Part shown: in pieces, positions 14,682 to 21,670 of the stretch | Layout: each line of letters begins with the position of its first letter | Position numbering within the stretch: the first letter of the stretch is position 1 | Virus record (IMG/VR): IMGVR_UViG_3300046691_000240 | DNA: 24,431 nt | From: an uncultured virus (IMG/VR IMGVR_UViG_3300046691_000240) | Taxonomy: Duplodnaviria > Heunggongvirae > Uroviricota > Caudoviricetes | Reading direction: 5' to 3' (one strand) | Notes under the pieces: model-generated | The model's database searches: none | Told to the model about the DNA's origin: nothing | Seen by the model: the letters and a program-made list of their open reading frames with translations, nothing else | Made by a program: the position numbers and the translations under genes

Positions 14682-15266
14682 TTATGCGATCTGGACGCGG
14701 TTCTGGACCCACCCGAACACAAACTTCTTGTTCTTCACGCGGGCTTCCGTGCGCTCCAGATAGTACACGGCCTGCTGCGAGTTGATCAGTGCGAGCAGGC
14801 AGCGTTCACCGGCCGCTTTGCGCAGCTTGAGGAAGGCGTCCAGGGAGGCAAAGCTGACCGGGCCGAGGTTGCCATCGGTTTCGAGTTGCGGGTAGTTGAT
14901 GAGGCCGTCGCCATCCGGGTCGTTGAGCGCATTCAGCGAGCGTTGGAGGAAGGTGGCCGCCCGGCCCGGGGGCAGGTTGACCTCGATCTCGAACAACTCG
15001 GCCGCCAACGGGCGGCTGCGCAGCAGCACCTGGTCGAACTTGGGGCGGACGAAATACTCACGCAGGTAGATGACCTCGGCGGTGTCCCGGGGCAGGTCCC
15101 GCATCGCCCCGTTGTACCCGTGGGAGCGGGCGACTTCCTCGGTGATGCCAAAGCGAGTTGCACCCCCGGCGTCATTTTTATCAATGCGCCCGGAGCCGTC
15201 CCCCTCAATGCCAATCAACTCATTAATGATTTTTTCGATCTCGGGGCTGTTGACCATCATGTTCAT
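14682..15266 (-). CDS. Endolysin, glycoside hydrolase family 108 with C-terminal peptidoglycan-binding domain
   Basis: EG...D.GG.T.FGIT motif, MRDLPRDTAEVIY...YF, LQRSLN, DGNLGPVS, KFVFGWVQNRV. Confidence 0.9.
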   Translation of the reverse strand: MNMMVNSPEIEKIINELIGIEGDGSGRIDKNDAGGATRFGITEEVARSHGYNGAMRDLPRDTAEVIYLREYFVRPKFDQVLLRSRPLAAELFEIEVNLPPGRAATFLQRSLNALNDPDGDGLINYPQLETDGNLGPVSFASLDAFLKLRKAAGERCLLALINSQQAVYYLERTEARVKNKKFVFGWVQNRVQIA

Positions 15267-15556
15267 GCGGCCTCCAGCTGGCAGGCGACCACGGCGCTCA
15301 GTTGGCCCACACGTTCGGACAGTTGATCGAGGCGATGTTGCAGCACATGGGAGAGGGTGAAGCGGCCTTCCTCGCGCAAGGTGGCGAGGGCGCTATCCAT
15401 GCTCATTGATACCGTGATCGGGCAGCGTTCGGCGGCGATGTCCGCCAAGTGCGCTTCTGCTTCTTTCCGCTGGGTGTAAACCCCAACCACTTCCAAATCC
15501 CGGTGCAGCGCGTCAAGGCGATACACCACAGTCACTTCTGGGCTGTGCTCGGTCAT
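15263..15556 (-). CDS. Hypothetical protein
   Basis: 97 aa, ATGA-coupled to the endolysin; VVGVYTQRKEAE motif; no TM segment. Confidence 0.65.
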   Translation of the reverse strand: MTEHSPEVTVVYRLDALHRDLEVVGVYTQRKEAEAHLADIAAERCPITVSMSMDSALATLREEGRFTLSHVLQHRLDQLSERVGQLSAVVACQLEAA

Positions 15557-15648
15557 GAGAAAACCTTTGAGAGTTGCCTCGGCCGTCTTGGTTTTGGAAT
15601 GTGCGGCCTTATGACTAAGCGTAGCGAAAGATGAAAAAAAAGTTATGT

Positions 15649-15668
15649 TTGCCTCGTTTTTCAGGCAA
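15649..15668. promoter_or_regulatory. Palindromic operator-like site (copy 2, inverted relative to copy 1)
   Basis: GTTTGCCT-CGTTTTTC-AGGCAAAC upstream of the endolysin unit. Confidence 0.65.
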
Positions 15669-15829
15669 ACCCGCGATAGCCATGAACTTTTTTATGCCTA
15701 TTTTGTCGGGTTTTTCACCCGATTGTTACAGGCGCAATCTTCAATGATTGCAGGGTGTTTGTAATATTATGTGTGCCCTAAACTGGGCCAGTAATGGCAC
15801 CGTGCCAAAAGTCAATGGCCCCCCTAGGC

Positions 15830-15859
15830 TTGTACAGAGCACCATTTGCTTCGTATCCT
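15830..15859 (+). promoter_or_regulatory. Candidate sigma70 promoter
   Basis: TTGTAC-N18-TATCCT. Confidence 0.4.
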
Positions 15860-15873
15860 GTTGGCGTATAACG

Positions 15874-15907
15874 AAAAAGCCCCCGCTTATTCAGCGGGGG
15901 CTTTTTT
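15874..15907. terminator. Bidirectional intrinsic terminator-like hairpin
   Basis: AAAAAGCCCCCGCT-TATTC-AGCGGGGGCTTTTTT: 14-bp perfect inverted repeat giving U tracts on both strands. Confidence 0.75.
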
Positions 15908-16589
15908 GAGGCCGGCGGGTGTATTCAGCACCTCCGGCCAAAGTCTCGGGGAGTTCTCTGCTGTGGCGGCGGGAAAACGAGACTTGGGTTAGCGATAATA
16001 CGCGGAACTTAGCCGTGCGATCAACTAAACCAACCTCAACCCCGATTCCAATGTCATTACTTCGGCGCGCAAGCGTGGCCGAGGGGGGTTGGGCTCGCGT
16101 GTTTGTTACCCCCTCGCTGCCGTGATGATGGACCGAAACGGGGAGTCTCTGCATATCGGTCACCGCACGACGCGCGTCATGCCTTCTAGGGTTCGCAAGC
16201 CTAGGGCTCTGGCAAGTGGGTAAGGGGAATTACACCGACACCACTCTAAAAACGTCGAGGGAGCGCCCAGCAGGGTAGGCTCAGCCAGTGCAGCAGGTCT
16301 AGGACGTGTTCACCCAGCGGGCAGAGGGCGACAGGTAGAGGCATTTACCAGCCAATAGTGGGTGACAAGGCGGACATCCTAGGATTTTTCTAGGAGGTCG
16401 AGCCTTTTGTGACGCGCAGCAGGAACAAAAGGCTCGGTAGCCTGCGGAGGCTTCAGCCGACAGCATTTTGCCCCCGGGCTGTGCTGGAACGAAGTGGAGG
16501 CCAGGCCGATAGGCTGTGGAGGCCAAGGGCCGACATCCTTACACCGGGCTTGTGGGTTTACAGCGTGTTCATCAACAAGGAGTAGGGCA
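15908..16589 (+). ncRNA. Candidate long structured RNA / leader (family not recognised)
   Basis: No convincing ORF; consecutive and nested stems, GNRA-type loops, and G-U pairs that work on the plus strand. Confidence 0.5.
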
Positions 16590-16817
16590 GTGGAACGTGA
16601 GTACGAAGAAACCGTCATTGTGTGCCGAGCTGACGATGTGATCAGCATTGGTGACAACATCCGCATTGTGGTGATGGGTGTGAATGGCAGAATTGCCCGC
16701 CTTGGCGTGGATGCCCCCCGCAGCGTTTCCGTGCACCGGGACGAGGTCTACAACCGCATCATTCAGGGGATTCCCCATTGCAAGAATTCGCCAAACTCTA
16801 CTGGGCCGAGGACTTAG
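16590..16817 (+). CDS. csrA: CsrA/RsmA-family RNA-binding protein (divergent N-terminus)
   Basis: ISIGDNIRIVVMGVNGRIARLGVDAPRSVSVHRDEVYNRI aligns without gaps to the CsrA core; AAGGAG RBS before GTG 16590. Confidence 0.9.
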   Translation: MEREYEETVIVCRADDVISIGDNIRIVVMGVNGRIARLGVDAPRSVSVHRDEVYNRIIQGIPHCKNSPNSTGPRT

Positions 16818-17053
16818 GCCAAGTGCTGATCACGCTCGATGGTCACTGCGTGAACCTGCGCTTCGCCTTGCCCGGCGCGGTGTCCAGCGCGTTGCGTTAC
16901 GACTTCGATGAAACCCTGGACGGTGAAATTCGGGCTCAGGATCTATTCTCAAACTTCAACCAGGAACGCACGTTGGCCGACGTTCGCGAATTTGTGATCA
17001 CGACGGGACTGCGCGCTTTGTTATCGAAAAAGAGGGAACCCACGGATGCGTAA
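16778..17053 (+). CDS. Hypothetical protein
   Basis: TTG start with GGGGA RBS; 91 aa; overlaps both neighbours. Confidence 0.6.
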   Translation: MQEFAKLYWAEDLGQVLITLDGHCVNLRFALPGAVSSALRYDFDETLDGEIRAQDLFSNFNQERTLADVREFVITTGLRALLSKKREPTDA

Positions 17054-17504
17054 TCCCCTGAAAGTTCTGCGCGCCATTTTGACGTCGCACATGCTGTTGG
17101 CCTTGATCGCGGTCCAGGTGTTCGTCCAGGTGTGGATGCACGCCACCAACATGCCGTTCATTGGTTTGATCCTCAGCATTTGGCTGTCGTGGAAACTCGG
17201 CGGTTTGGCGGCGTGGGCCGACATCCAGCAACGGTGCATCGACCATGCGCAGTTGGTGGCCAAGGAACTGAGCACGCTGCAAGAGGAATACGACGGCTTC
17301 CCCCCGGACATGCGTCTCGCGTTGGCCGGACCCTACGCCCGTGCGGTAGACCAACTGACGCGGCTGCACCAGCAGATGGTCAAGCAAATCCAGACCCCCC
17401 GCGTCAAACTGAAGTTCCGCGACATGCTGCCGTCGCCGTCGCGCTGGCTGGCCCGTCGCCGCCAACGCAAGATCATGGCCAGCGCCAAGGTCGTGCACGC
17501 ATGA
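17046..17504 (+). CDS. Membrane protein with two N-terminal TM helices and a coiled coil
   Basis: Hydrophobic N-terminal 55 aa; GAGGGA RBS. Confidence 0.65.
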   Translation: MRNPLKVLRAILTSHMLLALIAVQVFVQVWMHATNMPFIGLILSIWLSWKLGGLAAWADIQQRCIDHAQLVAKELSTLQEEYDGFPPDMRLALAGPYARAVDQLTRLHQQMVKQIQTPRVKLKFRDMLPSPSRWLARRRQRKIMASAKVVHA

Positions 17505-18750: not shown

Positions 18751-19025
18751 GCCAACCCCCGGACACCTGGGCCCGTGAAATGCGGGCCCTGCAGGACCAG
18801 ATCGAGCAGCTGACCCTAGGACTGGCCACCGCCAATTCCAGCCTTTTCCTGGTGCGCGGCCAGCGTCACGGCTACGCCTCCCTGCTCATGAATGCGCGGG
18901 AGGTTATCGAGCAGCACTGGCGACCTCACAACGAGGCTTCCCGGGTCGCCTGCGAACACATTCTGGTGCGCTTGGGCGACCGCAACGCCGCCGCTTTGGA
19001 GGTGGTGGCTGGGGCCGCGCCGTGA
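18747..19025 (+). CDS. Hypothetical coiled-coil protein
   Basis: ATG 18747 overlaps the previous stop; its own stop overlaps the next GTG. Confidence 0.6.
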   Translation: MSQPPDTWAREMRALQDQIEQLTLGLATANSSLFLVRGQRHGYASLLMNAREVIEQHWRPHNEASRVACEHILVRLGDRNAAALEVVAGAAP

Positions 19026-19249
19026 GCCCGAACTACGCGATCGAGCAGCGCCTGCGCCTGATTGATTTCCTGCTGGAGCACTATGGCCACGTCGGGCGCC
19101 CCGAGCTGTGCGACTTTTTCGGGGTCAGCGTGCCGTGCGCGTCGAACGACATCGCGATGTACCGGGAGGCCAACCCCGACAACGCCGAGTACGATTTTAA
19201 GAGCAAGCGGTGGGTGCGCAAGGTGACGTTTAAGCCGCAATATTCCTGA
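19022..19249 (+). CDS. Stand-alone winged-HTH protein resembling the N-terminal DNA-binding domain of CapW/BrxR-type WYL regulators
   Basis: EQRLRLIDFLLEHYGHVGRPELCDFFGVSVPCASNDIAMYREANPDNAEYDFKSKRW...FKP. Confidence 0.75.
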   Translation: MSPNYAIEQRLRLIDFLLEHYGHVGRPELCDFFGVSVPCASNDIAMYREANPDNAEYDFKSKRWVRKVTFKPQYS

Positions 19250-19281
19250 CCAATAAGACAACTATATAGAAGGAACTGCCC

Positions 19282-19557
19282 GTGGAAGAAACTGAAGACG
19301 TCAAAGTGGGGTTGACCCCGTGCGGTAGGGTGCGGCTGACCTACGCGATGGAACAGCGCATGCGTTTCATAGATTTTCAGCTGTTCCACTACGGCAAGAT
19401 CACGCGCAGGCACTTGATCGACTTTTTCGGCGTGACCTCGGCCACCGCCACCCGCGATTTCGCCCTGTTTGACGAGCTGTACCCGGGGCAGGCCCGCTTG
19501 TGCAACGTCACCAAGCACTGGGGCCCGACCTCGCAATACAGCCGCATTTTTCCGTAA
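19282..19557 (+). CDS. Second stand-alone CapW/BrxR-like winged-HTH protein (paralogue)
   Basis: EQRMRFIDFQLFHYGKITRRHLIDFFGVTSATATRDFALFDELYPG; AAGGA RBS. Confidence 0.75.
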   Translation: MEETEDVKVGLTPCGRVRLTYAMEQRMRFIDFQLFHYGKITRRHLIDFFGVTSATATRDFALFDELYPGQARLCNVTKHWGPTSQYSRIFP

Positions 19558-20418: not shown

Positions 20419-20768
20419 AGCCGGAATCTCTCCCTGATGGATAGCCGATAGATAGCCGGAATCTCTCCCCGTAAATTAGAAAACACCCCCCTGTTTCTGA
20501 CTGGAATCGTAGAAACCGGGGGGTGGTTTCTAACCGTTTGTTAGAATTTCTAACCGAGTGCGTTGAAAAACAGGGTCTATTTCAACGGTTTAGCGCGGTT
20601 GGCCATACCTGAAACTGGGCCTGATGGATAGCCGGGATTTCTCCCCCATGGCCCTGTGGATAACGGCCGGAATCTCTCCCTCATAGCGCCGGAATCCCTC
20701 CCCCCGTAAGCCGGATTCTCTCCCCCATAAAGCCGGATTACCTCCCTCATGGAGCCGGAATCCCTCCC
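20419..20768 (+). repeat. Replication-origin iterons, 8 copies of nGCCGGAwT(c/t/a)(t/c)CTCCC-like 16-mers
   Basis: Copies start at 20419, 20454, 20630, 20665, 20687, 20709, 20731 and 20753; the last five are spaced exactly 22 bp apart. Confidence 0.9.
20655..20663 (-). promoter_or_regulatory. DnaA box
   Basis: TGTGGATAA (= TTATCCACA) immediately before the five phased iterons. Confidence 0.85.
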
Positions 20769-20813
20769 TGAACTCGTCAAAAAGGTCTTTAACATCAGTA
20801 CGTTACAAGGCCG

Positions 20814-20856
20814 AAAACAAGATGTAAAAACAAGCTAAAAAACAAGTAAAAACAAG
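20814..20856 (+). repeat. AT-rich AAAACAAG repeats (probable DNA-unwinding element)
   Basis: Four copies at 20814, 20827, 20839 and 20849 next to the iterons. Confidence 0.7.
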
Positions 20857-20874
20857 CTGTATAAAGGTAGGGGC

Positions 20875-21597
20875 TCAAACGGGCAGCTCCATTTGTTGTT
20901 CCACGCTGGCTTTTTTGGTGACCGTGAAGTTGAACCCGACCACCTTCCGCCCTTTGCGTCTCGGCTCCATGCTCGCGGTGAGGTCGGTCAGCTTGTTCAC
21001 TTCTTCCAGCCCGGGATCGAGCACCCATCGGCGCAAGTCTTTGACGCTGCCGTACTTCTCGCCCAGATCAAGGCTGTCGCGCAGCTGTTCCAGCGTGACC
21101 CACCATGCCCCGGTGGTCAGGAACTGCGCCATCAGCTCGTACAGGCGAATCGCGTAGAAGCTGTTCAACCGGCCCACCTGGCGAAGCTGCACCGTAGTGA
21201 ATTCCTTGTGCAACCGGGTCAGGTGCGGCAGCACCTTGGGGGAGAAGCCGAGTTCGACGCAGCCCTGGCCTTCCTTGTAGATGGCGTGGAACACCCAGCG
21301 CATTTCCTCGATCACCTTGCCGTTCTTGTAGCGGTACATCATGCGGCGCATCAGGCGTTTTGAAGCCTCGTCCAGGACCGCATAAGCGTGCCGGGGCTCC
21401 ATGCCAAAGACCTCGGCAAAACTGTCGGCGCGCACGGTGATGTAGCAGTGGGCCGGGGCGGGTTTTCGCGGATCGAGCTGCGAAGCGGCCAGCAGGATCA
21501 GGCGCTTTTCGTTGAGCGTCAGCGCTTGGGATGCCTGAATCAGCTTGTTGGACTGCGAAACCTTGTGGTTCGTCGTCGGTACTTTCTTCTCAGCCAT
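20875..21597 (-). CDS. repA: Plasmid replication initiator, Rep_3 family
   Basis: VSQSNKLIQAS..LTLNEKRLILLA, ELGFSPKVLPHL..L...FT, SFYAIRLYELMAQF, LRRWVLDP.LEEVN, RKGRKVVGFNF; likely start ATG 21597. Confidence 0.93.
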   Translation of the reverse strand: MAEKKVPTTNHKVSQSNKLIQASQALTLNEKRLILLAASQLDPRKPAPAHCYITVRADSFAEVFGMEPRHAYAVLDEASKRLMRRMMYRYKNGKVIEEMRWVFHAIYKEGQGCVELGFSPKVLPHLTRLHKEFTTVQLRQVGRLNSFYAIRLYELMAQFLTTGAWWVTLEQLRDSLDLGEKYGSVKDLRRWVLDPGLEEVNKLTDLTASMEPRRKGRKVVGFNFTVTKKASVEQQMELPV

Positions 21598-21642
21598 TAC
21601 CCACCCCACACTGGACTCTATGGCTACTAGGCTAGTCGGGGA

Positions 21643-21670
21643 GAGGGAGAAGCACAACACCTTCTCCCTC
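21643..21670. promoter_or_regulatory. Inverted-repeat operator upstream of rep (probable autorepression site)
   Basis: GAGGGAGAAG-N8-CTTCTCCCTC; arms share the TCTCCC iteron core. Confidence 0.7.

Follow-up and report, generated by a model that had tools for sequence, protein, structure and literature searches.

A Probable ColE1-Type RNA-Primed Replication Origin Upstream of csrA in a Tailed Phage

Introduction

Replication of plasmid ColE1 is primed by RNA. The pre-primer, RNA II, folds while it is being made and forms a hybrid with its template; the hybridized RNA is cut by RNase H and then extended by DNA polymerase I. A second, antisense transcript, RNA I, binds to loops at the 5' end of RNA II and blocks priming, thereby setting copy number and incompatibility.

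The accessible parts of a survey of ColE1 origins (Ares-Arroyo 2021, PMC8683028) describe them in five orders, which they seldom cross, with one such origin in Pseudomonas and with phages named as vehicles only. The MRB plasmids (e.g., pB1067) have a Rep-less RNA I/RNA II origin, and pES213 has only the RNA I core in common with them and a different RNA II body, according to the portions available of Le Roux 2011 (PMC3035462), so that these plasmids provide a precedent for modularity. As there described, the MRB plasmids are confined to Vibrionaceae and their RNA I is 68 nt with two stems, compared by description with ~120 nt and three stems in the locus studied here. In Pseudomonas, the PAGEV RNA (RF03037) was reported to lie within a predicted origin, with its mechanism given as unknown in the sections available (Weinberg 2017, PMC5737381). 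The excerpts available of Romaniuk 2019 report the cloning of fragment 7384-1610 of pA22BJ2 and indicate that such modules are functional in Pseudomonas, with replication credited to a 135-aa "RepB". As far as those excerpts define it, this fragment holds "RepB" as well as PAGEV and the control head considered below (130-780), so the effects of the two were not separated.

Among phages, RNA-based prophage origins have been reported in mycobacteriophages (Wetzel 2020, PMC7157519). In the parts available of that paper, the cluster A phages resemble the phages studied here in being parA-bearing and integrase-free with a ~600-bp non-coding origin, and RepA and non-RepA versions alternate in one phage group. 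They differ in having an actinobacterial host, an origin beside parABS (here it is far from parA), and a likeness to ColE1 that is drawn as an analogy only. Phage-plasmids have been recognized chiefly through their Rep and partition proteins, and "ColE1" is not mentioned in the available text of Pfeifer 2021. As detection rests mainly on these proteins, according to that text, protein-free origins make phage-plasmids hard to see and to type. In our literature searches, which covered few subscription papers, we came across no report of a tailed phage with an origin of the ColE1 family or with a PAGEV origin.

Here, we studied a stretch of 24,431 nt from an uncultured tailed virus (IMG/VR IMGVR_UViG_3300046691_000240), referred to as the window. 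What sets the locus apart is the tailed-phage setting and the apparently exchangeable primer bodies; the ColE1 family and RNA-based prophage origins were already known.

Results and Discussion

A Structured, Gene-Free Region Precedes csrA

The first-pass annotation of the window had proposed a large structured RNA at 15908-16589 in a gene-free gap of ~680 nt. The gap is real and longer than that, at 1,033 nt (15557-16589), bounded by the start of a minus-strand ORF (15263-15556) and by a csrA homologue at 16590, whose assignment was confirmed with a Pfam score of 55.3 bits against a cut-off of 27. The proposed extent of the element required correction at both ends, as it starts near 15830, upstream of 15908, and homology ends near 16476, short of 16589. 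All eight stems previously listed between 15910 and 16436 were found where they had been placed. One of these, 16035-16043/16085-16093, is present in the window, although homologues keep 16077-16086/16109-16121 instead.

Folding energy, suggested earlier as a check, gave a modest result for the whole stretch (z -1.89 on the plus strand and -0.79 on the minus strand; 20 shuffles per strand). Analysis of 150-nt segments identified local peaks at 15825-15974 (z -4.1) and 16275-16424 (z -3.5), with values near 0 at 15975-16349 and beyond 16425. Covariation among homologues, considered below, is stronger evidence for structure than folding energy. The arrangement is not an assembly artifact, since one contig from another run covers 15000-17500 unbroken, and contigs from another study, belonging to a relative with ~90% identity, bridge the junctions from head to body and from body to csrA.

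The Element Belongs by Sequence to the ColE1 Family

A profile of nine plasmid origins, with ColE1 (NC_001371) included and the window excluded, matched 15843-16476 over model positions 18-680 (135 bits, E 7.6e-42). The sole blastn match among 72,556 plasmid records was pOCEGK02 from Oceanimonas, a 4.2 kb plasmid with no annotated Rep. Its RNA I scores above the Rfam cut-off (57.2 bits), as does that of ColE1 (73.8 bits), and 2,883 plasmid records, pAsa2 among them, match the origin of pOCEGK02. The window had no blastn match in the phage collection, and its origin, used as a query against 301 Pseudomonas genomes, returned 30-50-nt matches only, nearly all to the terminator hairpin. A pattern search of viral sequences yielded 10 true homologues among 47 matches, and a scan of genome contigs yielded one true locus (L125) in the first 80 profiled of at least 120 listed. 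A promoter-end pattern returned 20 phage loci, 13 of them distinct over the first 700 nt; because the head is what this pattern detects, any member of the family that has no such head would escape it.

The features of the locus are given in Table 1. Their spacing was compared with that of ColE1 using the roles of the ColE1 landmarks and the ColE1 origin position as we take them to be, with the G-rich loop presumably ~265 nt and the G-run ~20 nt before the origin in ColE1-type elements. The distance from the RNA II -10 to the RNA I -10 is 141 nt in the window and 130 nt in ColE1; from the RNA II -10 to the G-rich loop, 286 and 300; from that loop to the origin-proximal G-run, 253 and 247; and from the -10 to the origin-equivalent, 555 and 565 nt in total. 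Both G tracts therefore stand at matching spacing but are shorter than in ColE1, as in Aeromonadaceae origins: the loop has six G in ColE1, GGGGAG in the window and GGGGAA in Aeromonadaceae plasmids. In the alignment, the origin-proximal region falls on the G-run and A-run of the ColE1 origin.

Table 1. Positions in the window of the predicted origin features and of two neighboring loci.
Feature	Position	Strand	Details
RNA II promoter (predicted)	15830..15859	+	-35 TTGTAC 15830-35, 18-nt spacer, -10 TATCCT 15854-59
RNA II pre-primer (predicted), ~545 nt	15866..16410	+	both ends inferred from ColE1 spacing
RNA I (predicted), ~120 nt, three stem-loops	15870..15989	-	ends in hairpin 15874-15906
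RNA I promoter (predicted)	15995..16024	-	TTGATC-N18-TATTAT
C-rich junction of shared head and exchangeable body	16035..16045	+	identity shift
RNA II core, conserved	16052..16161	+	helices 16052-59/16122-30 and 16077-86/16109-21; stem 16131-36/16156-61 carries the G-rich loop, GGGG 16140-43
RNA II 3' domain	16185..16395	+	helices 16185-205, 16206-13/16284-91, 16307-16/16359-67 and 16378-95 (covarying helices 9, 10, 16 and 19)
Origin-proximal region	16393..16438	+	G-run GGAGG 16393-97; origin-equivalent ~16409-12; hairpin 16397-16438
csrA homologue	16590..16817	+	PF02599; neighbor, part in the origin not established
Second, protein-based replicon	20419..21660	-	Rep3 gene 20875-21660; 22-bp iteron-like repeats 20419-20775

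The predicted RNA II promoter was not detected by a sigma-70 consensus scan, and it aligns with the columns of the ColE1 RNA II promoter. In 13/13 distinct phage loci, a spacer of 18 nt separates the -10 from a preceding hexamer that starts with TTG, with the proviso that the -10 was itself part of the pattern by which these loci were found.

By prediction from sequence, the window shares with the ColE1 family (ColE1, pAsa2, and pOCEGK02) the facing promoters, a three-stem RNA I, an RNA II of ~550 nt, a G-rich loop (shorter than in ColE1), the origin spacing and homology detectable over the full length. It differs in that it sits in a family of 82-84 kb tailed phages with a probable Pseudomonas host, its body is only 55-67% identical, its head is closer to those of Pseudomonas PAGEV plasmids and phages than to that of ColE1, and no Rop or relaxase was identified among the window ORFs scanned. 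Based on the facing promoters, the three-hairpin antisense RNA and the promoter-to-origin homology, the element belongs by sequence to the ColE1 family, even though its RNA I misses the Rfam cut-off. We consider it likely that the stretch is a ColE1-type RNA-primed origin that lets a tailed phage persist as a plasmid prophage. The earlier expectation of a large structured non-coding RNA on the plus strand is supported by the profile match, covariation and ORF-breaking indels. Its reading as an undescribed non-coding RNA, or a leader working with CsrA, is not supported, given the end-to-end homology to ColE1-type origins, and had overlooked both the antisense RNA and the pair of facing promoters.

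A Predicted Antisense RNA I and the Shared Control Head

The predicted RNA I fold had a z-score of -6.22, with 0/200 shuffles as low, and its three hairpins resemble those of ColE1 and pOCEGK02 RNA I. A search of Rfam, recommended in the first-pass annotation, identified no family at cut-off in the window; the RNAI model (RF00106) nevertheless matched over its full length at 15991-15871 (-), with 24.7 bits against a cut-off of 47. Immediately upstream of this match is the sole sigma-70 consensus site detected in 15400-17200 (0.8 expected by chance, so weak alone), which aligns with the ColE1 RNA I promoter. The pattern TTGA..-N18-TA...T was kept in 12/12 loci with an RNA head. Changes on both sides were present in 9/27 head pairs among 11 sequences.

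At the junction of head and body, identity to phage relatives drops from 0.60-0.75 to 0.42-0.57, and identity to L062, the nearest relative of the window body, climbs to 0.68-0.85. The head itself is 0.56-0.67 identical to phage heads versus 0.47-0.53 to plasmid heads, and the placement of the window in a head tree has support of 22-27 only. The three-hairpin head is common to PAGEV plasmids (pPMA4326D and those of P. fragi).

Structure Is Maintained in the Primer Body

The first-pass annotation had also called for covariation to be examined among homologues. In an alignment of ten sequences, with ColE1 itself outside it, 57/108 predicted body pairs had changes on both sides, a number reached by 0/500 shuffles and compared with 7-17 pairs in slid controls; because the pairs were counted on the alignment that had yielded the structure, and the sequences are related, this proportion is not a probability. 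The hairpin in the origin-proximal region had 7/14 such pairs. The window retains 93/108 body pairs, and against each homologue it had 15-34 compensatory pairs versus 11-24 broken. Based on these two counts, its primer body does not resemble a decaying relic.

In minimum-energy folds of free RNA II the conserved helix 16077-86/16109-21 forms, and blocking the first 125 nt favors 16035-43/16085-93. These models give a weak hint of a fold switch between the two.

By analogy with ColE1, RNA II would start near 15866, fold during its synthesis and stay hybridized to the template near 16390-16410. RNase H would then cut RNA II, and DNA polymerase I would extend it, with the leading strand starting near 16410. 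RNA I, started near 15989, would bind the 5' loops of RNA II, alter its fold and block priming, and this block would set copy number and incompatibility.

The Neighboring csrA and Coding Potential

The element lies just upstream of csrA, in the same direction, in 12/13 distinct loci; the contig ends first in the 13th. No plus-strand terminator was found between RNA II and csrA, so unprimed RNA II may read on into this gene. Together with a relative (L232) in which the same promoter precedes two ORFs, these observations would suit a captured origin that now serves mainly as promoter and leader of a csrA operon, with RNA I attenuating read-through. Such a role seems to us improbable, as the whole primer is conserved with compensatory changes, including the origin end, a leader would have no need of a swap for another full plasmid-origin body (PAGEV), and read-through is compatible with priming.

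A free-standing RNA that binds or sequesters CsrA would likewise adjoin csrA, and a few GGA triplets are predicted to be unpaired. ANGGA motifs were not enriched in the stretch, however (three, where ~3.7 were expected), no Rfam match to CsrB, RsmY or RsmZ was identified there, and no csrA was annotated near the plasmid homologues among those with annotation examined. The sponge role is thus unsupported, and we regard it as very improbable.

The region also contains minus-strand ORFs of 90 and 95 codons (15891-16163 and 16379-16666), the first of which had been named earlier as a coding signal that would speak against an RNA. Neither had a Pfam match, one-base deletions at 15923, 15963 and 16038 in near relatives break the overlapping minus-strand ORFs, and variation tracks base pairs. 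That the region is protein-coding is scarcely credible on these data, and the RNA-primed origin remains our preferred interpretation.

Phage Lifestyle and a Second Replicon

The three relatives rated complete (G002, G003, and G008; 82-84 kb) each carry one copy of the origin element, and all three have virion genes and partition and replication functions, with no integrase detected. ParA and a small serine resolvase were identified in 3/3, and a tyrosine integrase and Rep3 in 0/3; large serine integrases were judged by ORF length alone (201-268 aa). A Pfam scan of 111 of the 116 G002 ORFs (all but five virion genes) and of 40 of the 46 additional ORFs of G003 and G008 (all but a long ORF and five duplicates) detected no Rep family. 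These ORFs came from our own simple ORF calling, and many have no assigned function. No clear lysogeny repressor was found among the ORFs scanned.

The window itself, a fragment, carries virion genes together with a Rep3 gene; among the records tested, the Rep3 gene occurs only in the window and in G007. The best plasmid matches of this Rep3 are Pseudomonas Rep proteins (60-64%), and the Rep3/repeat replicon appears to derive from small Pseudomonas plasmids. As the window has this replicon of its own, the RNA-primed origin could be a backup. We infer a probable Pseudomonas host from Rep3, the MvaT domains encoded by a relative and the PAGEV plasmids. The MvaT domains are DNA-binding domains encoded by two tandem genes in G002 (L036:11695-12522). 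The window has, at 19022-19557, two tandem paralogous small ORFs that are ~44% alike, occur family-wide and have no Pfam match.

Searches with the phage capsid found no match in 72,556 plasmid records (PLSDB) or 401 Pseudomonadaceae genomes, so no extrachromosomal prophage copy was seen in a host. The incomplete G005 (64% capsid identity) and PMBT3 (37%), a cultured distant relative with no annotated ParA, did not match the origin profiles.

The same RNA-primed origin might instead start lytic replication or act as a secondary origin, with Rep3 or an unrecognized protein maintaining the prophage. The relatives do have a PolA of their own as well as helicases and further genes for replication, Rep3 is present in the window and G007, and the many ORFs of unassigned function leave room for such a protein. 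We think this unlikely based on three observations: a strong antisense promoter in 12/12 loci suits copy control better than runaway lytic replication, the three complete relatives are without Rep3, and PMBT3, which has no annotated ParA, matches neither profile. A plasmid-prophage origin accounts for the locus better in our judgment.

An Apparent Replicon Slot in Related Phages

The bodies behind the head differ among the 13 distinct loci: nine have a PAGEV-type body, one (the window) a ColE1-type body, two a third body and one an HTH gene. Of eight PAGEV loci scanned, six scored above the Rfam cut-off and two (L223 and L224) below it. Changes on both sides were present in 24/89 pairs of the PAGEV-type body, which was also found in small Pseudomonas plasmids. 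PAGEV thus occupies in relatives the same slot behind the same head, but the body of the window is not PAGEV, with no match to RF03037 at E<=5.

The third body, which follows the shared RNA I head, is a structured region of ~380 nt (L233:3470-3880 (+) and L238:1560-1980 (-)). Its matches in plasmids were 31-nt chance matches only, it had no Rfam match, and no exact 27-mer of it was found in viral contigs; the two copies differ too little from each other to be informative on covariation. We propose it as a candidate for a new class of primer RNA. L233 and L224 are 0.86-0.98 identical across the head and 0.92-0.98 identical downstream of the body, whereas identity within the body is 0.50-0.58 (0.48 for shuffled sequence), a pattern that has the appearance of a clean cassette exchange.

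In L232 (254-1605), the same promoter and first hairpin are followed by a 201-aa winged-HTH ORF and then a 171-aa ORF. The 201-aa ORF gave weak RP-C/RepL-like leads. The pair stands where the RNA origin would be and is possibly a protein replicon in the same slot, as a lead only. The phage loci, pPMA4326D and pOCEGK02 contain nothing that matches the 135-aa "RepB" of PAGEV plasmids, which is therefore not a required partner.

With nhmmer and with a 164-position covariance model, no homology to RNA II was detected for either PAGEV or the third body. The loop motif TTGGACTCAAGA occurs in both PAGEV and ColE1 RNA II, where it precedes a stem whose loop is G-rich (L253:190-560 (-) and L004:838-990); the visible likeness of either body to RNA II was confined to short motifs of this type.

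From the relatives, the site would be a replicon slot in which the promoter and RNA I head are kept and the primer body is exchanged. We are evenly divided on the further proposal that one antisense-control head drives at least three sequence-unrelated primer RNAs (ColE1-type, PAGEV and the third body). If this is correct, PAGEV would function as an RNA II and the third body would represent a new class of replication-primer RNA, with primers being traded between tailed phage-plasmids and small plasmids while the phage-plasmids keep their incompatibility head. The locus offers a testable mechanism for PAGEV, whose function is unpublished in the literature searched, and natural head/body chimeras would be a model for how RNA I control is coupled to unrelated primer folds. 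It would also extend ColE1-type replication to a probable Pseudomonas phage, where the accessible parts of the survey by Ares-Arroyo 2021 had a single Pseudomonas ColE1 plasmid, and it may supply new Pseudomonas vector origins.

Two further elements were observed among the records. Several P. fragi plasmids (e.g., L033) have two PAGEV-type origins with different heads, suggesting that they are cointegrates of compatible replicons. The closest relative of the primer body of the window is held by a circular element of 13.6 kb with terminal repeats (L251, G010), which encodes a P2-type capsid, a tail tape protein and a D5-type primase together with MobV and a resolvase, and which by its gene content appears to be a satellite/plasmid hybrid.
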